Shown here: piece after piece, positions 2,210-61,292 of the stretch | How the letters are laid out: the number at the start of each line of letters is the position of its first letter | How positions within the stretch are numbered: position 1 is the stretch's first letter | From: Patescibacteria group bacterium | Lineage (GTDB): Bacteria > Patescibacteriota > Patescibacteriia > Magasanikbacterales > GWA2-37-8 | Direction: 5' to 3' | Assembly: GCA_041661385.1 (NCBI GenBank) | Contig: JBAZUP010000001.1 | Location: 704,907-768,906, forward strand | Length of the DNA stretch: 64,000 nt | Program-made: the position numbers and the translations under genes | Notes under the pieces: generated by a model | What the model saw: the letters and a program-made list of their open reading frames with translations, nothing else | Databases searched by the model: none | What the model was told of the DNA's origin: nothing

Positions 2210-2627
2210 TATCTCGCTATCCCCGCCTGCAACGCTTTGCGTAGCAATGCGGGCAGGGCTCAATCAATTCAATCATTTCTCTATAATACTTATTTCCTTA
2301 GCCCTGCCGGCGGCATCACTTTTCATAACTGAAAAGTAATCAAAAGGTTCTGGGGGCCGGCAGAACTCGTCGCGCGAGCTCCTCAAACAGCTGGCGGCCC
2401 CCAAACCCCCGTTGGGTAATTGGTTGGACAACAACTGGTGACCGAGCCTTTGTGTAACGAGAGCGAAATGGCCGGCGAAATTAGATTTTTTCAATACGAT
2501 TATGCACCTTTGAAAAAATCGTTTTGATTTCGACAAGACATTTGCCGAGCGGAACAACTGCGAGGCAATTTTGGGGACACCCCTTTTGTTGCCAAAAGGG
2601 GTGTGAAAGAGTTTTGAGCGATAGCGA
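2210..2627 (+). ncRNA. candidate structured ncRNA or repeat element, copy A (homologous to 21659-21955)
   Basis: Shares several conserved blocks in the same order with copy B: tatctcgctatc, ctcaatcaatt, ttagccctgc, ttcataactgaaa, aaccaaaggtt, ccccaaacccccgttgggtaattg, gaccgagc, and a distal hairpin gacacc..ttttg.tgccaaaagg..gtgtg. The long stem gggggccggcag/ctggcggccccc (2352-2363 with 2391-2402) covaries with the copy B stem. The 5' end (ctcgctatc) and 3' end (gatagcgag) are complementary, forming a closing helix. The element begins right at the efp terminator T-tract. Confidence 0.45.
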
Positions 2628-2700
2628 AATGTATTAATGAAAAAATATGTTAAATTTGTAATCTAGAAATTTATATTCATCTGTGCTAGTGTAAAATGGT

Positions 2701-3258
2701 ATGAAAGAACTGACCGATAATCAACTAATTACGGCATATCGCGAGGGTGATGGCAGTGCTTTTGAAAATTTGGTAAATAGGCATCTAAAATCTGTCTATT
2801 TTTATTGCGTCCGATTGGTCGGTAAAGACGAGGCGAATGACATGACTCAAGAGGTTTTTATTAAAGTTTGGAAACATCTCAATAAGTATGATGTTGAAAA
2901 AAATTTCAAAGTTTGGCTATTTCGAATTGCCCGCAATACCTGTCTCGATTATCTCCGTAAAAAACAACCGATGGTATTTTCGGATTTAAAAAAAGAAGAT
3001 GAAATGTCGGTTGAAGAAAATATTCCTGATCAGCGAAAAGGCGTAGAGGAAAAATTATTTGCTGCCGATCAAAAATCTGAACTTGATACGGCGCTTGCTA
3101 AATTATCAATACCAACTCAAGAAGTATTTGAGTTGTTTTATCGAGATGAATTAACTTTTAATGAAATAGCGGAAACTCTTAAACTATCCGTAAATACGAT
3201 AAAAAGCCGACACCGTCGGGGTATCGTTGAGCTCCAAAAAATATTAAAAGGTCAGTAA
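2701..3258 (+). CDS. ECF-type RNA polymerase sigma factor (sigma-70 family, regions 2 and 4)
   Basis: 185 aa; region 2 (FENLVNRHLKSVYFYCVRLVG...DMTQEVFIKVW..FKVWLFRIARNTCLDYLRK) and region 4 (LTFNEIAETLKLSVNTIKSRHRRG...L). Confidence 0.85.
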   Translation: MKELTDNQLITAYREGDGSAFENLVNRHLKSVYFYCVRLVGKDEANDMTQEVFIKVWKHLNKYDVEKNFKVWLFRIARNTCLDYLRKKQPMVFSDLKKEDEMSVEENIPDQRKGVEEKLFAADQKSELDTALAKLSIPTQEVFELFYRDELTFNEIAETLKLSVNTIKSRHRRGIVELQKILKGQ

Positions 3259-3302
3259 ATGCACCAAAATTGCCGACTGTTGCGTATTATTAATATATAA
3301 AT

Positions 3303-3737
3303 ATGAACCTCGACGAACATCTAAAAAATAGCTATTCACAGGCCCTTTTGACCGAGGTTGATTTAGAAGCGACTAGATCTAAAATTATGATACAGGTTAG
3401 CCGGCTTAACAAGCGCCGCATACTCATTCGCTCCGGTTTTTGGAGTGTGTTTACCTTTGTTTCTACCCTAGGTCTCGTTACTAGCAGTATTGGGTTTTAT
3501 CAACAGTTTATTGGTTCTGGAGCCCGCGAACTTATCGTAGTTGCTATTACAGACACCAGTGTTATTCTGCAGAACGGCACGGCCTTTTTTTATTCTCTCG
3601 CCGAATCCATGCCGGTCGGAAATATTGCCGGAACGCTTGCCGCGACCGCCGCTTTTTTATATTCTTTACAACATTTATCAGAATTATTAATGAATAATTT
3701 ATCAAAAAAAATATATGGACACAAACCAACAAATTAA
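3303..3737 (+). CDS. membrane protein, possible anti-sigma factor partner of the upstream ECF sigma factor
   Basis: 144 aa with a short charged N-terminus and then hydrophobic segments. Assigned only by position immediately downstream of the ECF sigma factor. Confidence 0.35.
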   Translation: MNLDEHLKNSYSQALLTEVDLEATRSKIMIQVSRLNKRRILIRSGFWSVFTFVSTLGLVTSSIGFYQQFIGSGARELIVVAITDTSVILQNGTAFFYSLAESMPVGNIAGTLAATAAFLYSLQHLSELLMNNLSKKIYGHKPTN

Positions 3738-4185
3738 ATCAAAAATGTTGAAGTGGGTTATTTTCGGTATTGCTGAGCTCGCGCTAGTGGCAATTGTTTT
3801 TCGTACTGGCATGATGGTTGGTTTTGCAAAAGCAAACTTTAATTTTAGCTGGGGAGAACAATATCATAATATGTTCGGCGGTCCGCGCGGAGGTTGGATT
3901 GGCGGTCGTGGTGGCATGATGGGCGGCGCCTTTGATCGGGATGATTTTTCCCCAGGGCACAACGTGGTCGGATCGGTAATAAAAGTTTCTTCTTCAACTA
4001 TAATTGTAAAAGGGGCAGACAACACAGAAAAATTATTATCAATTTCAGAGGGAACAACGATTAGAAAAGGCGGAACGAATATTAAAATTTCTGAATTAAA
4101 AGAAAATGATCGAATAGTTGCAATTGGTTCGCCAAGTACTACCGGTCAGATTGAGGCAAGTTTCATCCGTGTCTTTCAGCCATAA
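3715..4185 (+). CDS. membrane-anchored Gly-rich protein, paralog of the 7882-8316 product
   Basis: N-terminal TM segment, a Gly-rich linker (GGPRGGWIGGRGGMMGG), and a C-terminal beta-rich domain that aligns by eye with the 7882 ORF (GSVIKVSSSTIIVKGADNTEKL..ISEGTTIRKGG vs GEILSKTDNTLTIKLRDGGSKI..FSSSTPVRMF). Confidence 0.5.
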   Translation: MDTNQQIKSKMLKWVIFGIAELALVAIVFRTGMMVGFAKANFNFSWGEQYHNMFGGPRGGWIGGRGGMMGGAFDRDDFSPGHNVVGSVIKVSSSTIIVKGADNTEKLLSISEGTTIRKGGTNIKISELKENDRIVAIGSPSTTGQIEASFIRVFQP

Positions 4186-4188
4186 TTT

Positions 4189-5889
4189 ATGAACATTGTT
4201 CAGAGAGTGAAAAAACATCCATACTATACAGCCGCAATTGCAATTACTTTGGTTGGCGGCGGGTGGTATTGGTATAGCCATCGAACGGTTGCGACTATTA
4301 CGCAATATGTAACAGCGACAGTTGAAAAACAAACCATAATTTCTACTGTTAGCGGCAGTGGCCAGGTCAGCACTCTGAAAAGATTAGATTTAAAACCTCA
4401 AACCAGCGGGACTACGAATCAGGTAACCCTTACTTCGATGAATGTTGTTCCCGGTCAAATTGTAAAAGCCGGCCAAGTTATAGCAGTTATAGATAATACT
4501 AGTGCGATGGTTTCGCTCGAACAAGCGCAAGCATCTCTTATTAGTGCGGAAGCGAATTATAAAAAAATATTAGGCGGGACAACTGAAACAGATTTAAAAA
4601 ATGCCAGGCAAGATGTAATTTCCGCTGAGTCGGCTTTGCAAAATGCTAAAACAAGTTTAGATACAGTAACCCAACAGCAAAATACGGCGGTAGCCAATTC
4701 TTACCGCAGTCTTTTGACAAGCGGAATAGCGGCGACTCAATCGCTATGGTCATATACTTCTACGAATGTAACTGAAAGCGACAAGCCGACCATTACCGGT
4801 TCGTACGCGCTTACCGCGTCCGGTACTTTGCAAATTTTTCAACAGGGTGCTTATTTTTATGCTTCCGGAATAGAAACTATTCCAATGCAAAAAATTGATA
4901 CCCGTATTCCGGTTGCGCTTGGTACAACCGGGCTGTATGTTCAGTTTCCAAATGATGCGATTTCTGCCGAATGGGATATTCAAATTCCCAATCCTCAAGC
5001 TAGTAGCTACGTTTCAAATTTAATTTCTTATCAGTCTGCGCTTCTTTCTCAAAAACAGGCTCTTAGTAATGCGCAAAATGCGATTATCACCGCTCAGACG
5101 AATCTTCAAAAAGCACAAGATAATCTTGCTTTGAAAGAACAGCCGCCGGAAGATAGTAGTGTCGCAACCGCGCGAGCCCAGCTTATTAACGCGCAATCGC
5201 AACTGCGAACCGCGCAAAGTAATTATAGTAATACCAGAATAACCGCACCTTTCGCCGGTCAAATTGCCGCTGTAAATTCCCAGCAAGGTGATCAGGTTTC
5301 TGGCTCTACTGTAATCGCGACCCTTATCACCGAACAAAAAATTGTCACCGTCAGTTTAAATGAAGTCGATGCTGCCAAGGTAAAAGTCGGCAATCCGGTT
5401 ACTCTTACCTTTGATGCAATACCAAGTCTTACTTTGACCGGCAAGGTTTCACAAATTGATCTCCTCGGCACAGTAGCTCAAGGGGTAGTTAATTATTCTG
5501 TTCAAATTTCATTTGATACTCAAGATGATCGAGTTCGGCCCAGTATGAGTGCGGCCGCCGCCATTATTACCGAAACCAAAACCGATGTGCTCGCCGTACC
5601 AATTTCTGCAATCAAATCAAACGGCAGCGGCTCTTATGTCGATGTTATTGAAGATAGTAATATTGCTACTAAAAACGGAACGACTGTAACTTTAAAAACC
5701 AGCCCCAAACAGCAAACCGTTCAAGTCGGAGCTTCTGATAATTCATTCACGGAAATAATCAGCGGTCTTACCGAAGGTGAGACAATTGTCTCAAGAACTA
5801 TCACTCAGGCAGCAGCTGCCTCTTCTGCTTCGTCGCTTAGAATTCCAGGTATAACCGGTGGCGGGGGCGGAAATTTCCGCGGAAATTAA
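4189..5889 (+). CDS. periplasmic adaptor or membrane fusion protein of an efflux system (HlyD/MacA family)
   Basis: 566 aa; N-terminal TM, a long coiled-coil-rich middle, and the MFP barrel-sandwich signature NTRITAPFAGQIAAVN..GD.V; Gly-rich C-terminal tail. Confidence 0.7.
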   Translation: MNIVQRVKKHPYYTAAIAITLVGGGWYWYSHRTVATITQYVTATVEKQTIISTVSGSGQVSTLKRLDLKPQTSGTTNQVTLTSMNVVPGQIVKAGQVIAVIDNTSAMVSLEQAQASLISAEANYKKILGGTTETDLKNARQDVISAESALQNAKTSLDTVTQQQNTAVANSYRSLLTSGIAATQSLWSYTSTNVTESDKPTITGSYALTASGTLQIFQQGAYFYASGIETIPMQKIDTRIPVALGTTGLYVQFPNDAISAEWDIQIPNPQASSYVSNLISYQSALLSQKQALSNAQNAIITAQTNLQKAQDNLALKEQPPEDSSVATARAQLINAQSQLRTAQSNYSNTRITAPFAGQIAAVNSQQGDQVSGSTVIATLITEQKIVTVSLNEVDAAKVKVGNPVTLTFDAIPSLTLTGKVSQIDLLGTVAQGVVNYSVQISFDTQDDRVRPSMSAAAAIITETKTDVLAVPISAIKSNGSGSYVDVIEDSNIATKNGTTVTLKTSPKQQTVQVGASDNSFTEIISGLTEGETIVSRTITQAAAASSASSLRIPGITGGGGGNFRGN

Positions 5890-6623: not shown

Positions 6624-7853
6624 ATGATGAAAACCGTTGATTTAATTGAAGAAATTTATTGGGGGCTTTCCGCCAACAAGGTCCGGTCTTTTTTAACTAT
6701 TCTCGGTATTGTTATCGGCATTGCTTCGGTAATTGCCCTGCAGGCGATTGGTGCCGGGGCCAAAGGTACCATTGAAGCTAGTATCCAATCGGTAGGATCA
6801 AATTTATTATTTGTTACACCGGGCGCTCAGCGCGGTGTTGGAGTTTCAATAAACGCCGGCCGAGGTTCGTCACAAACTTTAACGAATGAGGATGCTGCAG
6901 CAATTGCTAGCAGTATAAATGGAGTTAAGGCGGTTGTGTCGGAAAAATCTGCCCGCTATCAAGTCAAAGCGGGTGGCCTGAATACAAATACCTCGATTAT
7001 TGGTACAACTTCCGCCTATCCGGGTGTTCGCAATATTCAAATTGATACGGGAACATTTATCAGCGATCAGCAGCAGCAATCGAGCCAGCGGGTCGCGGTA
7101 CTAGGGCCGACCGCCATGGCCGATTTATTCGGTTCGAGCACCACAAATATTATTGGGAAAACCGTAACAATAAAAAACATGCCGTTTATTGTTATTGGTA
7201 CAACGGTGGCAAAAGGCGGTTCCGGTTTCAGCAATTCTGATGACGCAATATATGTTCCTCTATCTACTGCTCAAAAATTTTTAGCTGGTGACGATTTTCT
7301 GGGTACCATTGATGTTCAGGCGGAAGATGCCTCACAAATGACAAACATTAAAAATGATATTACATCTTTATTGCTCGCTCGCCATAAAATTACCGGCACA
7401 AAAACCGCAGATTTTAGTGTGATGAGTCAAACTGATATTCTTGCTACTGCTTCCAGCATTACCGACACCCTAACTTCACTACTCGCCGCTATCGCTGGCA
7501 TATCGCTTTTGGTTGGGGGTATTGGAATTATGAACATGATGTTAACGACCGTAACCGAACGCACTAAAGAAATTGGTCTTCGGCAGGCAATTGGTGCAGA
7601 AAAAGCTGATATTAGCAGACAGTTTTTATTGGAAGCTGTGACGCTCACATTTATTGGCGGAGCGGTCGGAACATTTATCGGTTATCTCGCTTCACTTATC
7701 ATCAGTAAATTTATAAATGTGGCGGGAACGATTACTTTATCTTCAGTCATGCTCGCAATTGGCGTTTCGGCCGGCATCGGAATTGTGTTCGGTTATTATC
7801 CGGCCCGACGTGCGGCAAAACTCAACCCGATTGAAGCGTTAAGATTTGAATGA
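6624..7853 (+). CDS. ABC transporter permease, FtsX/MacB family
   Basis: 409 aa with an N-terminal TM, a large periplasmic domain, then the C-terminal 3-TM FtsX-like domain (GIGIMNMMLTTVTERTKEIGLRQAIGA). Completes MFP-ATPase-permease synteny. Confidence 0.8.
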   Translation: MMKTVDLIEEIYWGLSANKVRSFLTILGIVIGIASVIALQAIGAGAKGTIEASIQSVGSNLLFVTPGAQRGVGVSINAGRGSSQTLTNEDAAAIASSINGVKAVVSEKSARYQVKAGGLNTNTSIIGTTSAYPGVRNIQIDTGTFISDQQQQSSQRVAVLGPTAMADLFGSSTTNIIGKTVTIKNMPFIVIGTTVAKGGSGFSNSDDAIYVPLSTAQKFLAGDDFLGTIDVQAEDASQMTNIKNDITSLLLARHKITGTKTADFSVMSQTDILATASSITDTLTSLLAAIAGISLLVGGIGIMNMMLTTVTERTKEIGLRQAIGAEKADISRQFLLEAVTLTFIGGAVGTFIGYLASLIISKFINVAGTITLSSVMLAIGVSAGIGIVFGYYPARRAAKLNPIEALRFE

Positions 7854-11366: not shown

Positions 11367-12812
11367 CTATTTTCGGTTTGCAGCCTCCTTCATCGTTTCG
11401 GCCAGTTCTTGTTTAGTAACTCCTTTTTCAATTAGTTCTTTGCTGTGGAGTAGCCAAAAGGCTTCCACGCCTTGGTTTACTACCATCGGTACGCCGTCCA
11501 GGGTTTCGAAGCCAAGCTCGGCGGCCTTTTTGAGGAAGGGAGTGCCTTCCTTGGTGAGCACAATATCGCTCACGACCGCTTTTTTGGGTATGAACTCGAA
11601 CAGGCGCGCCGCGTTTAGGTAATTTTCGGCAAGGTTTTCCGGTGTGGCCGGAAGTCTGGCCGGAGCCAGAGCGCTGTATTCGGCCATTTCACCGGCTGCT
11701 CCCTTGGTGGAAACGTTTATTACCGCATCGGCCGATGTGATCTCGCTAGCGGTCATAAGTTCGCCTCCAAACGAGGCTATTTCCGCGCCGATGTAGCGGT
11801 TGATCCTGGTGGCAAGTTCCTCGGCTTTTTTTTCTGTCCGGTTCAGAATGGTGATTTTCATGCCTTTCTCTGCGAGGGCAAAAGCCACGGCGTTGCCGGT
11901 TCCGCCCGCACCGAGCAGTACGGCTTTTTTGCCGCGAATATCTTCACCCTGAGCCGCAAAGCGTTCGGCCAGGCTCTCTGCGTAGCCGAGACCATCGGTG
12001 TTATAGCCGCGCAGCTTGCCTTCTGGTGTCTTCAGAATGAAGTTAATTGCGCCGATTGCCTCAGCCGCCGGATCAAGTTCAAGGTGCTTTGACGCCTCGT
12101 CCTTGAAGCCGACTCCGGCTCCACCACCCAAATACTTCGGGTCATTTTCAAGAACCGTAAGTATTTCTTTGGCGTGAGTCGGGTCACCAACCAGCATGAT
12201 GTTCCCGGTTTTGAGGCCGAATTTACGGTAAGCCGCATTCCACATCACCGGAGTTTTTGCCGGGTAGTCGTGTTCGATGAGTGGCAGGGTGTAGTGGTCA
12301 AAATCGAGAGAGCTAGGATTGTCAGCCGGAAGTTTCGCGATTTTCATCGCACCGCTTTCAAGTAACTCACCCGCACCTTTGATTTTTTCCGTAAATTCGA
12401 AGTTCATAATCGTAACCATGTCAGCCTCCGTTAGTTTGCGTCCATAGACCTTTTCAAGTTTTGCGATTACTTCGGGCGAGGTGGCGCCGTCTAGCGCCGC
12501 TCCCGCGAGATCGTCCGCTTGAAGGTCGGAGACGATTTTTTTCTGAATATTTTTCACCAAAACTTTTTTGGTGGCATCCTGAAAAGTGTTATCAGGATTT
12601 TGGACCTTTAATTCAATGAACGTACCCGCTTGGTAACCAAGTTTTGGGTCGCTAGTGCGTTCGGTGCGGTCTCCAAGTCGGATGGTCGCATTGACATCGC
12701 AGTTTTCTATAACGTCGATCAGGTGTTTTACTTCCGAATCGCTAGCACCCTTGAACCAGATTTCATTCGCGAGTTTTATCGCGTGATGCTCTCGGCTATT
12801 TTCTTTTTCCAT
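11367..12812 (-). CDS. aroE: shikimate/quinate 5-dehydrogenase (AroE)-like protein with a roughly 160-aa N-terminal extension of unknown function
   Basis: C-terminal 320 aa carry the AroE motifs (V.WNAAYRKFGL, NTDGLGY, KKAVLLGAGGTGNAVAFAL..G..I.ILNRT, VNQGVEAF.LL). The N-terminal 160 aa have no recognisable motif. Confidence 0.55.
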   Translation of the reverse strand: MEKENSREHHAIKLANEIWFKGASDSEVKHLIDVIENCDVNATIRLGDRTERTSDPKLGYQAGTFIELKVQNPDNTFQDATKKVLVKNIQKKIVSDLQADDLAGAALDGATSPEVIAKLEKVYGRKLTEADMVTIMNFEFTEKIKGAGELLESGAMKIAKLPADNPSSLDFDHYTLPLIEHDYPAKTPVMWNAAYRKFGLKTGNIMLVGDPTHAKEILTVLENDPKYLGGGAGVGFKDEASKHLELDPAAEAIGAINFILKTPEGKLRGYNTDGLGYAESLAERFAAQGEDIRGKKAVLLGAGGTGNAVAFALAEKGMKITILNRTEKKAEELATRINRYIGAEIASFGGELMTASEITSADAVINVSTKGAAGEMAEYSALAPARLPATPENLAENYLNAARLFEFIPKKAVVSDIVLTKEGTPFLKKAAELGFETLDGVPMVVNQGVEAFWLLHSKELIEKGVTKQELAETMKEAANRK

Positions 12813-23148: not shown

Positions 23149-23589
23149 CTAGTTTTCCTCCTTTTCTATCAACACTCGGAAGTGCAGATAGAATCTATCT
23201 CCTGGTGCTACGGCGTGGCCGTAAATGTTGATGACCTTGAAGGCGTCGCCCTTGTCATCGGTCATAATGACGATGATTGGGCTGATTACCTTGAGGGTTT
23301 TGCCGAGAATTACCCGACAGTCGCCCTTGTGGCCATGGTGGTGCCGCCAGAAATCGGCGACAGTCGCTAGTGACCAACGGTCAGCGCCGATTTTGTCGGC
23401 ATATTCCCGTAGCCGGCGAACGGCATGGGGGAAGCAGTAGCGGAGCAATTGGGTGGTGGGTTCTCCACCATTCTTGACCAGCATACAAAGCCGGTCTAAG
23501 TGTTCACGGTCAATGTGACCGCGCATGTGCCTCCCTTCAGCACAGGGGAATGAATACAGCAGGAACAGTCTCTTGCCAGAAATTTCCAT
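23149..23589 (-). CDS. hypothetical protein in a composition-atypical (about 55% GC) islet next to tRNA-Gly
   Basis: 146 aa ORF with GGAGG 11 nt upstream and a plausible promoter. Local GC is well above the window background. His-rich segment WRHHHGHKGD. Confidence 0.4.
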   Translation of the reverse strand: MEISGKRLFLLYSFPCAEGRHMRGHIDREHLDRLCMLVKNGGEPTTQLLRYCFPHAVRRLREYADKIGADRWSLATVADFWRHHHGHKGDCRVILGKTLKVISPIIVIMTDDKGDAFKVINIYGHAVAPGDRFYLHFRVLIEKEEN

Positions 23590-23907: not shown

Positions 23908-23958
23908 GAGGAGTGTCGCGATGAACAAAATTTATTTTGTTCAGCATGACCGACGAGC

Positions 23959-24067
23959 GGCTTCATATATCTCGCGATATATGATTCCGCGTCTCAATCA
24001 ATTTTTCATCTTTTCATTTCCGACGTAGGGCTTCATATATCTCGCGATATATGATTGCCCGCGTCTC
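23959..24067. repeat. two tandem copies (70-bp period) of a 38-bp repeat with an imperfect palindromic core upstream of tRNA-Gly(TCC)
   Basis: ggcttcatatatctcgcgatatatgatt(c/g)cc(c)gcgtctc at 23959-23997 and 24029-24067; core ATATAT-CTCGCG-ATATAT. Confidence 0.6.
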
Positions 24068-59042: not shown

Positions 59043-59483
59043 TTATTCCAGCTCACTAATTTTTTTTAAACGTCGTAACCGTCTTTCTTGGTTATCAAAT
59101 TCAGTGTCTAAAAAATGTTTAACAATCGCAACCGCGTGTTCGGTTGAGAGGGTGCGGCCGGACAGACAAAGTATATTTGCGTCATTATCACGGCGACCGA
59201 GCTCGGCGCTTTCAATCGATGCGCCAAGAATTGCTCTTATGCCTTTTATTTTATTGGCAGCAATACACATGCCATGGCCGGACCCGCAAATGAGAATGCC
59301 GCGGTTTGCTTTGTCTTTAGCGACTTTTTTCGCGAGGGGAATGGCAAAATCAGGAAAATCATCATCGGCATCAAAATTAACCGGACCCAAATCCTCAAAT
59401 TTTATTTTGAGAACATTTTCGAGTTTATCCGTCAAAAGCTTCTTAAGCTGATAACCGGCGTGATCGGAAGATATATAAAGCAT
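59043..59483 (-). CDS. rpiB: ribose-5-phosphate isomerase B
   Basis: 146 aa; RpiB/LacAB signature SDHAGYQLK...GILICGSGHGMCIAANKIKGIRA. Confidence 0.85.
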   Translation of the reverse strand: MLYISSDHAGYQLKKLLTDKLENVLKIKFEDLGPVNFDADDDFPDFAIPLAKKVAKDKANRGILICGSGHGMCIAANKIKGIRAILGASIESAELGRRDNDANILCLSGRTLSTEHAVAIVKHFLDTEFDNQERRLRRLKKISELE

Positions 59484-59536
59484 AACAGATCAAAAAATAA
59501 GTTGAACTTTGCTTATTATATCGCGTTTTTTCCATC

Positions 59537-59565
59537 TTGACAAACCGAGGTTTTTGTGATATAAT
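59537..59565 (+). promoter_or_regulatory. perfect consensus sigma70 promoter with extended -10 driving the GC-rich gene
   Basis: TTGACA (59537-59542), 17 nt, TGaTATAAT (59557-59565); a roughly 165-nt leader precedes the AAGAGG Shine-Dalgarno and the ATG at 59738. Confidence 0.65.
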
Positions 59566-59737
59566 GTGTCGTTGTTGAATCGATTGATTTTGAATGAAAA
59601 AGGCTTAAATAAGCGAATTTTATAGTTCATTAAAACTTAATTGTTACCGAAAATGTGAGTGGCAAAAAGTGGCTAATATTGGCTGTTTTTTGCCGCCCAT
59701 AAGGACGGTACAACCAAAAAACAAAGAGGTTCACGAA

Positions 59738-60972
59738 ATGACCACCGGAAACATCGGAACTCCCGCCCTCAAGCTGGTGACCACGTCTTCGGAGGTCAAG
59801 CCCTCCGACGAGCAGCTCTTCGCAATCGCCGAGGAAGAGCTGGGAAGCAAGCCCGACCCCGAGATTCTCGCTCAGCCTGGCGTCCGCGTCATGATGATCG
59901 AGATCTGGATGGAGCGGCAGGCCGAGCTCGAGGAGCAGAAGCGCGCCGCCGACAAGCTCGAGGCCGACCAGAAGGAGAAGGAGCGTCAGCGCGTGCTCTC
60001 CGAGCAGGCGAACAAGCTCCGCGAGCGCTCGAACAAGCGCTTCAAGCCCGGCGCCCCCAAGGGCCCGGTCGTCTTCCTCTCGAATGAGGACATCCAGAAG
60101 GCCGTGCAGAACACGGTTCTCGAGGAGGCGAAGAAGTCGCGTCCGGACCTCCTGCCCGACTGGGTCAGGGAGAAGGATGATGTGGCCGCCATCCGCGGCT
60201 ACCTCTGCGGTGAGCGGCGCAACATCATGGAGTACATGCAGGCAAACCCCGCCGAGATGAAGTTCGTCACCTGGGCCACCAAGGCCATCGCCGACATCCA
60301 GGCCGAAATCGTCTTCGTGACGAAGCTCGGCTTCCGTGCCTTCAACAAGGCCGACCTCACCAAGGAGGGGCATTACTGCCCGACGCCGAAGTACCAGCAG
60401 TATATCCTGCCGAGGCTGAAGGCGAGCAGCTTCTATCAGAAGCTGACGAGCCAGGTCGGCGGCACCAACACCGACTCCGCCAAGTCGGTGGAGAAGGAGG
60501 TGCCGGTCGACCACATCGCCGCTGCGAGGAAGCGGACCGAACAGCTCCTCGCGGAGGAGAAGATCCGCCTGGACATCGGAGGTCGTCTGGTCAAAGCCGA
60601 CTGCGACGAGCAGTCGGTGGTGAGCCGGGCCGACCGGATCATGAAGAAGTTCCAGGGCACCGCCGTGGAGCGTCTCACCCAGGCCGCGGTTGGTCAGGGT
60701 GTGCTCGCGAAGACGAGCTCGGATCCGCAGCTGTGCGAGCAGGCGATGCAGAGCGCGGCTCTGTACTCGAAGGCGGCCGATATCGGCACCGACGAGTTCG
60801 CGGCGCTCATCGACGAGCGCATCGCGAACGCCCACTCCGCGGCGGACAAGCCGTACGCCGTGGTGGAGCGGCCCCTCTCTCCACCAACCAGCAGAAGAAG
60901 CAGTCCGAGGCTGCGCGCAGGGCTCGGAACGCGAAGAAGAGCGGTGAGAAGAAGAACAAGAAGAAGCAGTAG
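59738..60972 (+). CDS. high-GC horizontally acquired gene, hypothetical protein with a coiled-coil and charged N-terminus and a Lys-rich C-terminus; apparent -1 frameshift near 60868-60880
   Basis: About 62% GC with GC3 near 90%, against a roughly 38% GC host. SD AAGAGG sits 7 nt before the ATG. Frame 2 (59738 onward) holds the G/C-ending codon bias until the C-run at 60872-60875. From there the bias continues in the neighbouring frame, which ends NQQKKQSEAARRARNAKKSGEKKNKKKQ* at 60972. The in-frame read-through to 61054 uses atypical AGA/AGT codons. The 475-aa antisense ORF (59630-61057) is a GC-composition artefact. Confidence 0.55.
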
Positions 60973-61012
60973 AGTTAGCGACCAACAGGTCGCAAAACTC
61001 TCGCAACAACCA

Positions 61013-61049
61013 GACAGCCAAGGCAATCCCTTGGCTGTCTTTCGTTTTT
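61013..61049 (+). terminator. rho-independent terminator after the GC-rich gene
   Basis: gacagccaagg-caatc-ccttggctgtc followed by tttcgttttt. Confidence 0.7.
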
Positions 61050-61050
61050 G

Positions 61051-61079
61051 TTGACAAATAAAAGATAATCTCATAAAAT
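61051..61079 (+). promoter_or_regulatory. sigma70-like promoter for the ileS leader
   Basis: TTGACA-17 nt-TAAAAT; about 205-nt leader before the ileS ATG. Confidence 0.55.
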
Positions 61080-61085
61080 AGCTTT

Positions 61086-61292
61086 AACGTTCGTACCCGC
61101 TATCAACGGGGAGTTAGGGAAAGAAAGCCGATGATATCGGCAAGTAGAATCCTTCGGGTAAGCCCGCAATAGCTGTAATTGAGGCCACTTAGGCAAAACT
61201 GGGATGGTACCGCCTGTTCGCCAGGCTCCCGGTAACGCGAGTGGTTTTTTTAATTTCACCGGGCGCGGCTCGGCATGATTTCGTCAAATCGT
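61086..61292 (+). promoter_or_regulatory. probable T-box riboswitch leader (tRNA-Ile sensing) upstream of ileS
   Basis: The roughly 205-nt leader contains a T-box-like element AACUGGGAUGGUACCGCC (consensus AGGGUGGNACCGCG with a one-nucleotide insertion) at 61205-61224, followed by nested helices and a U-run (61247-61253). Location upstream of an aaRS gene supports the call. Stem I and the specifier loop are not confidently resolved. Confidence 0.4.

Follow-up and report, generated by a model that had tools for sequence, protein, structure and literature searches.

The gene described here lies in a window of 64,000 nucleotides (nt; the whole stretch of DNA that was analysed) from a tiny groundwater bacterium of the Patescibacteria group, order Magasanikbacterales (contig JBAZUP010000001.1, positions 704,907 to 768,906). 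It is a GC-rich orphan gene located between rpiB and ileS and is called X below; L-numbers designate loci and P-numbers homologous proteins. The genes and features at the locus are listed with window coordinates, strand and the content of G and C at third codon positions (GC3) where it applies.

59043 to 59483, minus strand: rpiB, left flank (LacAB_rpiB Pfam domain in the syntenic loci; 79% identical to rpiB of locus L001; GC3 0.38)
59515 to 59543, minus strand: promoter-like site of rpiB, back-to-back with the X promoter (TTGTCA, 17 nt, TATAAT; 11/12; a consensus match only)
59537 to 59565, plus strand: extended -10 promoter of X (TTGACA at 59537 to 59542, 17-nt spacer, TGaTATAAT with the -10 box at 59560 to 59565; 12/12, with the TG)
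59572 to 59737, plus strand: AT-rich 5′ leader of X (about 166 nt, 34% GC; fold of -43.9 kcal/mol, z = -3.7 against dinucleotide shuffles)
59655 to 59700, plus strand: long leader hairpin (17 contiguous pairs at 59661 to 59694, with an outer extension)
59693 to 59708, plus strand: putative small alternative hairpin CCGCCC-AUAA-GGACGG, drawn from the alignment and overlapping the 3′ arm of the long hairpin
59724 to 59729, plus strand: Shine–Dalgarno (SD) sequence AAGAGG, 8 nt 5′ of the ATG at 59738 (read from the sequence)
59738 to 60874, plus strand: main reading frame of X (379 codons, 64.7% GC, GC3 0.905; homologous to P0002, P0003, P0004 and P0005)
60870 to 60882, plus strand: frameshift site GGCCCCTCTCTCC (C4 run and (CT)3)
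60874 to 60972, plus strand: ancestral Lys-rich tail, now in the -1 frame (PLSTNQQKKQSEAARRARNAKKSGEKKNKKKQ, then stop; GC3 0.88)
60875 to 61054, plus strand: out-of-frame read-through tail, Arg/Ser-rich (annotated open reading frame of 438 amino acids (aa); stop TGA at 61052 to 61054)
60978 to 60993, plus strand: short hairpin of the 3′ untranslated region (UTR), GCGACC-AACA-GGUCGC (read from the sequence)
61012 to 61050, plus strand: intrinsic terminator of X (12-bp stem at 61012 to 61040 with 7 GC pairs, 5-nt loop, tail TTCGTTTTTG)
61051 to 61079, plus strand: ileS promoter (TTGACA, 17 nt, TAAAAT; 11/12)
61075 to 61233, plus strand: T-box-like ileS leader, right flank (RF00230, 21.1 bits, E = 0.0064 on 261 nt)
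from 61293, plus strand: ileS, the right flank gene

GC is 64.1% in the segment from 59738 to 60972 and 41.1% in the remainder of the window. GC at the first, second and third codon positions of the main frame is 0.64, 0.40 and 0.905. The 45 host open reading frames (ORFs) of the window have a mean GC3 of 0.371 (standard deviation 0.063, maximum 0.63), and X lies 8.5 standard deviations away. The deviant composition and sharp edges reported in the preliminary description were confirmed: the shift is sharp to the codon and coincides with the ATG (59738) on one side and, on the other, with the stop codon (60972) of the frame once corrected. Beside X, GC falls to 33.7% in the leader and 50% in the 3′ UTR, and the neighbours rpiB and ileS have ordinary GC3 (0.38–0.43).

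Codon use in X is dominated by AAG (97%), GAG (92%), CAG (100%), TTC (100%) and ATC (95%). Codons ending in A are almost absent (AAA 1/33, GAA 3/36, CAA 0/23), as are TTT (0/55) and ATT (1/80) among those ending in T. Host genes use AAG at 23% and GAG at 17%, with AAA at 77%, GAA at 83% and CAA at 63%. Translational optimization of X in its host was considered and rejected because rpoB and rpoC, which favour codons ending in C (NNC), nevertheless retain GAA (87–90%) and AAA (62–71%). In the four-fold boxes of X, C or G is taken indifferently. The protein itself stays close to the host: it has 33 Lys and 24 Arg (a Lys/Arg ratio of 1.4, the host ratio being 1.8) and its fraction of Phe, Tyr, Met, Ile, Asn and Lys is 0.235 vs 0.30 in the host. 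Proteins native to genomes of 65–70% GC have Arg far above Lys. As for k-mers avoided in X, only the usual depletion of TA and of off-frame stops was found; TTT and AAAA runs are absent.

About 15 billion proteins were covered by the homology searches, which comprised a word-indexed search of 5.8 billion sequences (90%-identity clusters) and a profile search run exhaustively against 1.84 billion representatives (50%-identity clusters). The X family recovered in this way consists of five proteins in all. The X protein is annotated in metagenome-assembled genomes of ‘Candidatus Magasanikbacteria’ and of ‘Patescibacteria group’, and a second assembly (L002) contains the same gene, frameshift included. 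P0002 is encoded on the ENA contig L001, where the order trxB-rpe-rpiB, X, ileS is that of the window. P0003 is encoded on the JGI contig L003 and adjoins rpiB. P0004 and P0005 are more distant homologues in other contexts (L004 and L005). Three family loci occupy the same rpiB/ileS slot. X is a GC3 outlier in every locus (window 0.905, L001 0.93, L003 0.94, L004 0.88, L005 0.97); the flanking genes have a GC3 of 0.28–0.45 in L001 (18 neighbours), 0.48 in L003, 0.55–0.75 in L004 and 0.44–0.70 in L005. A close relative carrying the same gene at native GC and without frameshift had been proposed as the observation that would make X ancestral. The relatives do have an intact, unshifted X, but it is still at 63–73% GC and not at native GC. 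In L004, two orphan ORFs with a GC3 of 0.75 lie directly 3′ of the X homologue (2223 to 3253), and the bordering glycosyltransferase genes have a GC3 of 0.55–0.58.

No X homologue was found in GC-rich DNA among the 1.84 billion representatives, nor in scans of genomes, metagenomes and viral contigs with the alignment of the X proteins. The product had been called unrecognizable, and no family or fold match was indeed found in Pfam, NCBIfam, PHROGs, PADLOC or the PDB. Its proposed identity as a phage structural or scaffold protein is contradicted by the lack of any PHROG match, viral-contig relative or viral fold match. The borders of X, next to rpiB and ileS, are free of mobility signs, with no tRNA within 26 kb and no flanking direct repeats.

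Between the window and L001, flanking genes are 59–82% identical in protein and about 70–75% in DNA, and X is about 42–45% identical to P0002. Identities for the pairs window–L001, L001–L003 and window–L003 are 45, 34 and 29% for X and 79, 66 and 72% for rpiB. The divergence of X thus roughly tracks that of rpiB, window–L001 being the closest pair for both and the two remoter pairs ranking differently. Four-fold sites were then counted within identical residues of the window and L001, with expected values obtained by arithmetic from the base frequencies. Third-base identity was 45/89 (0.51) in X vs 0.41 expected from composition, and 0.34 in ileS vs 0.26 expected. The changes in X are nearly all swaps between C and G (23/89 sites), and A or T is rare. 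Since silent-site divergence in X is about that of ileS, the GC-rich regime would have been maintained and not inherited from a donor. The comparison shows vertical inheritance of the cassette at least from the separation of the window and L001 lineages onwards, and retention of the GC-rich regime (about 90% of codons ending in C or G) over a near-saturating turnover of synonymous sites.

Recent import of X, as far as these comparisons go, is not supported. Deviant composition and codon use and patchy presence in close relatives were observed, as expected for a recent acquisition; a matching donor lineage, amelioration of GC3 (0.88–0.97 in all five loci) and mobility signatures at the borders were not. 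The high-GC donor suggested in the preliminary description fares no better. No homologue has a GC-rich context, and the gene is intact in relatives whose flanks are 59–82% identical; the ileS-like divergence of its four-fold sites and its host-like Lys/Arg ratio also oppose such a donor. No published account of a persistently GC-rich gene regime was found in the literature searched.

The expression signals of X are all on the plus strand. The complete set of host signals claimed for X was found (promoter, leader, SD sequence and terminator), with a correction of the SD spacing, which is 8 nt and not 7. The promoter is conserved in 5/5 family loci (-35 box CTTGACAAA, extended -10 box TGnTAnAAT). 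This pattern is generic, with at least 120 matches in viral contigs, and was rejected as a marker of the family. An SD sequence AGAGG or GGAGG is kept in 4/5 family loci. The short hairpin of the 3′ UTR has a counterpart at the matching position in L001 (GCGC-UCCG-GCGC).

The leader is conserved across the family loci at its start (CGTTGTT) and in its 3′ half. The long hairpin (about 20 bp, arms GGCAGAAAA...UUUUCUGCC, cap GGCUAAUAUUGGC) covaries in the alignment of the five sequences: in six of its 18 pairs both bases have changed in compensation, as in GGCAG/CUGCC, GGCGG/CCGCC and GGUUA/UAACC. Its equivalent is located at 6826 to 6875 in L001 and is also present in the L003, L004 and L005 leaders. 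Among the loci fetched, it is confined to those of X, and no Rfam match was obtained. In the small hairpin, pairing is kept as CUGUCC/GGACAG in L001 and CCGUUC/GGACGG in L003 (read from the alignment); its general form is CCGYCC-N4-GGACRG, about 30 nt 5′ of the SD sequence. The region from 59655 to 59708 is a candidate for a new cis-acting RNA.

An AlphaFold2 model was built from the alignment of the five sequences. It is all-helical (predicted local distance difference test (pLDDT) score 73.6), with a 50-residue coiled coil (49–101) and a confident helical C-terminal domain (257–370, pLDDT about 90). The mixed alpha/beta core supposed earlier is replaced by an all-alpha prediction. All X proteins share the start MTTGN...P(T/S)D(E/D)QLF. 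No N-terminal hydrophobic segment was seen by eye in the translation (a signal-peptide predictor was not run). From the basic tail and the modelled coiled coil, a nucleic-acid-binding or scaffolding protein may be guessed. Since the protein evolves fast and its gene resides in a variable slot, it may have a role in some biotic interaction.

The slot was surveyed in 80 rpiB loci from species-representative genomes, the closest being examined in detail. The cassette does lie between rpiB and the regulatory region of ileS, as had been described, and in several related Magasanikbacteria rpiB and ileS are adjacent, with gaps of 315–690 nt. In this group the slot is hypervariable: it is either empty, with such gaps, or filled with unrelated orphan ORFs that are mostly elevated in GC3. 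It is located about 300–2200 nt upstream of rpiB in L006 to L038 (locus coordinates about 3300–5000). X is present in the window and L002, L001 and L003, and absent from L006, L007, L008, L011, L025 and L030; in these, rpiB and ileS are direct neighbours or have other ORFs between them. Five GC3 outliers were detected in the 80 loci, three of them in the slot, and GC3 ranges from 0.48 to 0.90 across unrelated occupants.

Two kinds of occupants were noted in passing. A small Cys-rich family is found in L013, L015, L016 and L018 (pattern C..C..HD.ACP..LGY..G..ALEEAQNG; 31–44% identity; GC3 0.48–0.74 vs about 0.36–0.45 in the hosts), for example at 3965 to 4288 of L018 and 4524 to 4886 of L016, both on the minus strand. 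In L022, a 415-aa orphan without Pfam match (3641 to 4888, minus strand, GC3 0.75) has an IIDGLQR motif, which by eye resembles the DGQHR/ParB-like motif of DNA-modification-associated proteins.

In L014 the slot contains a gene for 156 aa, with a GC3 of 0.90, that is a member of what is called family Y below (144 proteins of about 155 aa, from Patescibacteria). The family is the target of a diversity-generating retroelement (DGR): a template repeat/variable repeat (TR/VR) pair of 122 nt with 83–86% identity was found, with bAvd and a reverse transcriptase (RT) adjacent, and likewise in L210. The regions concerned are 2312 to 4711 in L014, 5001 to 8063 in L210, 296 to 763 in L206, 5001 to 5462 in L207 and 4248 to 5468 in L208. 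Family Y was GC-rich in every locus examined, with GC3 values of 0.96, 0.85 (two tandem copies), 0.75 and 0.65, vs 0.24–0.64 in the hosts. The RT and Avd genes of L210, the only locus where they were measured, have a host-like GC3. Four-fold sites of family Y are near saturation, with the same habit of AAG, GAG, CAG, TTC and ATC as in X. Family Y is found in many contexts, including between truB and infB, where it is also GC-rich. X as a DGR target was rejected, as no TR/VR pair, RT or Avd was found: no part of X is repeated in the 64-kb window, and there is no RT, Avd or Y homologue in the window, L001, L003, L004 or L005. X looks like one instance of a recurrent class of GC-rich, fast-evolving accessory genes in low-GC Patescibacteria.

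Taken together, these data favour, with moderate confidence, an old self-contained accessory cassette with a maintained GC-rich regime, under selection at the level of the message and crippled in the window allele. The cassette would consist of a consensus promoter, a structured AT-rich leader, a strong SD sequence, an ORF of 411 codons and an intrinsic terminator, residing in a hypervariable slot of a small Magasanikbacteria clade. Its product would be a fast-evolving, cytoplasmic, all-helical protein with a coiled coil and a basic Lys-rich tail. The composition of X would be actively held against an AT-biased host background by a pressure confined to the stretch from start to stop codon, indifferent between C and G and opposed to the codon preference of rpoB and rpoC. 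Ordinary translational selection is unlikely, a mutational or conversion bias bound to the locus or to transcription should not spare the non-conserved leader and the neighbours, and an antisense gene is excluded. What is left is probable selection on the composition of the coding segment, as RNA or as DNA, in its own right. The likeliest purpose would be a nuclease-resistant, long-lived message with few U and no U-rich or A-rich tracts, enclosed between the leader and terminator hairpins; this purpose, which we infer, is the weakest step. In the window allele, an indel in CCCC(CT)3 would have swapped the Lys-rich tail for an Arg-rich read-through tail.

Several points weigh against this reading, beginning with the inferential nature of the message-stability step. 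The transcript also contains an AT-rich leader, which would have to be processed or protected if GC protects the message. Stable folding of the X coding sequence is not specific: its z-scores against synonymous shuffles (-3.5 to -5.5 for the whole gene, -2.5 to -5.2 when restricted to blocks) overlap those of the controls (+0.4 to -7.8; host genes -0.4 to -4.8, two other GC-elevated genes -4 to -7.8). Unrelated genes of the slot are GC-elevated too, which fits a shared GC-rich pool or a locus effect equally well. The family has only five members, and the contexts of L004 and L005 are poorly known. Finally, X is absent from L006, whose rpiB is 73% identical to that of the window, vs 72% for L003. 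As X is missing from L006 in spite of this L003-like closeness, the slot turns over.

The first alternative is that X and the other slot genes belong mainly to an unsampled GC-rich pool (mobile elements, or Patescibacteria that are themselves GC-rich) and entered the slot repeatedly by homologous recombination in the conserved flanks, which would make every copy young in its present genome. The recurrence of GC-rich genes makes the phenomenon more general, but it also leaves room for such a pool. The hypervariable slot, empty in some relatives and filled with unrelated orphans in others, agrees with exchange, as do the concentration of three of the five GC3 outliers in it, the GC-rich state of the unrelated family Y in many contexts, and the occurrence of X outside the slot in L004 and L005 together with its absence from L006. 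Against this stand the lack of any family member in a GC-rich context in all the searches and scans, and the AT-rich promoter and leader that accompany the coding sequence in 5/5 loci. Synonymous divergence of X equal to that of ileS, its tracking of rpiB and a host-like protein composition (Lys/Arg ratio 1.4 vs 1.8) are also difficult to reconcile with young copies. We regard exchange with a pool as doubtful rather than improbable.

The reading frame of X moves from 0 to -1 at CCCCTCTCTCC. At about 60875, GC3 changes from 1.0 to 0.5 in frame 0 and from 0.5 to 0.9 in the -1 frame, which bears out the frame disruption previously placed near a C run. The run itself, given before as C5, is C4 (60872 to 60875) and is followed by (CT)3. 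In L001 the site reads CCT CTC TCC in frame. Compared with this, CCCC(CT)3 of the window is two bases too long or, equivalently, one base short of CCC CCT CTC TCC; the shift is -1 in both cases. The displaced tail matches the tail of P0002 (...EKPLSASQ...RRAREAKKQAKGERQKKNKK), and a Lys-rich C-terminal tail is present in 4/4 homologues (P0002 to P0005), each a single ORF throughout. The programmed frameshift put forward as an option was rejected, as all homologues are in one frame and no slippery X XXY YYZ heptamer is present at the site (it reads CGG CCC CUC UCU). The stop TGA of the read-through frame lies beyond the T-tract of the terminator, within the -35 box of ileS, and the terminated transcript of the window allele probably lacks a stop codon.

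Alternatively, the real gene would be intact and the frameshift a consensus error at a GC-rich homopolymer or microsatellite. The nature of the site, a C run followed by (CT)3, is what such an error would need, and X is otherwise free of lesions (379 codons are open 5′ of the shift and codon bias is retained in the displaced tail, with a GC3 of 0.88). The same frameshift is, however, found in the second assembly L002, which matches the window at 99.91% over 11 513 positions with 10 single-nucleotide polymorphisms and no gap; two assemblies that differ at 10 positions share the shift without any indel difference, and one of them is a 779-kb contig. A consensus error is improbable, and on the agreement of both assemblies the frameshift is real and not assembly noise. 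Compared with the intact homologues the frame is disrupted, as in a pseudogene, while further lesions and loss of codon bias, also expected of one, were not found. A displaced tail that still has a GC3 of 0.88 and the lack of any other lesion argue for a recent event. The window allele is probably a recently crippled allele that has been fixed in the population.

GC-biased gene conversion, or a mutational bias bound to the locus at a recombination hot spot, would account for the elevated GC of several unrelated slot genes (GC3 0.48–0.90). Such a bias should not end at start and stop codons, next to the non-conserved leader, at 34% GC, and between rpiB and ileS at GC3 0.38–0.43. X also keeps a GC3 of 0.88–0.97 outside the slot, and family Y is GC-rich between truB and infB. 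This explanation is very improbable.

A translational switch is at least as improbable. In this scheme, stress or phage attack would lead to cleavage or undermodification of the U34 tRNAs for Lys, Glu and Gln, and a message made only of codons ending in C or G would stay readable, since tRNAs with G34 or C34 suffice for it. Codons ending in A are avoided more strictly in X than those ending in T, the host leans on AAA, GAA and CAA, and the DGR-target family Y has the same codon pattern, all in its favour. Codons ending in T, which G34 tRNAs would read equally well, are shunned too (TTT and ATT), and no anticodon nuclease was seen in the window.

An assembly chimera, also raised in the preliminary description, or an overlapping antisense gene is scarcely credible as the source of the composition: the chimera is excluded because the same junctions recur in independent NCBI, ENA and JGI assemblies, and although a 475-codon antisense ORF (59630 to 61057) spans X and the codon-aligned antisense frame is open in 5/5 homologues, an open frame is automatic at a GC3 of about 0.9, C/G swaps at sense third positions alter antisense first positions and leave the antisense protein unconserved, and the expression signals are all on the plus strand.

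The ileS leader downstream of X had been described as T-box-like, which is a weak assignment. Stem I is reduced from 84 model positions to 21 nt and the RF00230 gathering score of 93 is not reached (21 bits), but the T-box GGGAUGGUACCGCC aligns with high posterior probability, about 90 nt 5′ of the ileS ATG. The ileS leader of L001 (8230 to 8400) likewise has the T-box sequence and a shortened Stem I. The distance from the terminator to the start of ileS is only about 130 nt in L006, where the leader may be missing. Elsewhere in the window, a 146-aa orphan without Pfam match (23149 to 23589, minus strand) has a GC3 of 0.63, the second highest of the window. It has its own terminator hairpin (GCCACGCGC-UCCG-GCGCGUGGC) and is located just downstream of tRNA-Gly(TCC). 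Two copies of a 47-nt palindrome (GCGGCTTCATATATC-TCGC-GATATATGATTCCGC), 70 nt apart, lie upstream of this tRNA gene (23945 to 24061, minus strand). A 481-aa protein with a shikimate-dehydrogenase-like domain (11367 to 12812, minus strand) is encoded with a mildly raised GC of 0.51 and a GC3 of 0.55; the adjacent SIS-domain gene has a normal GC.

Some features of X recall known systems. The ‘morons’ of lambdoid phages are independent promoter-ORF-terminator units inserted between conserved genes, with a deviant base composition. X is comparable in that one ORF has a sigma-70-type promoter and a factor-independent terminator to itself and a GC sharply unlike that of its conserved neighbours, but it is chromosomal, between housekeeping genes, has no phage homologues, and its deviant composition is conserved over a long divergence. 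With a recently acquired genomic islet, as in the amelioration model, X shares atypical GC and codon use and a patchy presence in relatives. It differs in having no donor, mobility genes or border repeats, in showing no decay of GC3 at saturated synonymous divergence, and in edges that coincide with the codons of one ORF. The O-antigen (galF-gnd) and pneumococcal capsule (dexB-aliA) clusters are hypervariable, with conserved flanks and a persistently atypical GC. The slot of X also has conserved flanks and a variable, deviant content across lineages, and the means of exchange would probably be recombination in the flanks; unlike these clusters, it contains one or two small orphans, with a GC above that of the genome. 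Stable, highly expressed messages with long structured 5′ UTRs are known for S-layer genes, Bacillus subtilis aprE and Escherichia coli ompA. X resembles them, as far as can be read from its sequence, in its consensus promoter, long leader with a stable hairpin, strong SD sequence and strong terminator hairpin. It departs from them in having no evident signal peptide, codons that are not those preferred by the host, and a hairpin near the SD sequence rather than at the 5′ end. A further parallel is family Y of Patescibacteria, also a fast-evolving accessory orphan of the same slot with a GC-rich regime of codons ending in C or G in low-GC genomes and its own strong promoter; X has neither the TR/VR repeat, nor nearby RT and Avd, nor the C-type-lectin-like C-terminus.

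With the X cassette, a protein family and a covarying leader RNA, both new, become available for study. It is conceivable, though unlikely, that Patescibacteria keep a separate GC-rich regime of codons ending in C or G for fast-evolving accessory genes (X, Y and the slot orphans), held by selection in genomes of 36–42% GC. An example would be messages that survive, or can still be translated, in a conflict in which bulk AT-rich mRNAs or U34 tRNAs come under attack. Deviant base composition is a standard mark of recent transfer, and imports are assumed to drift towards the composition of their host. X, together with an unrelated second family in the same phylum, stands about 25 GC points above its genome after repeated replacement of its silent sites, and no donor of X is found in public data. 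Should this composition be held by selection, transfer calls based on composition would need care in small-genome symbionts, and the coding sequences of the candidate phyla radiation would be under an unrecognized constraint, possibly for message survival or selective translation.

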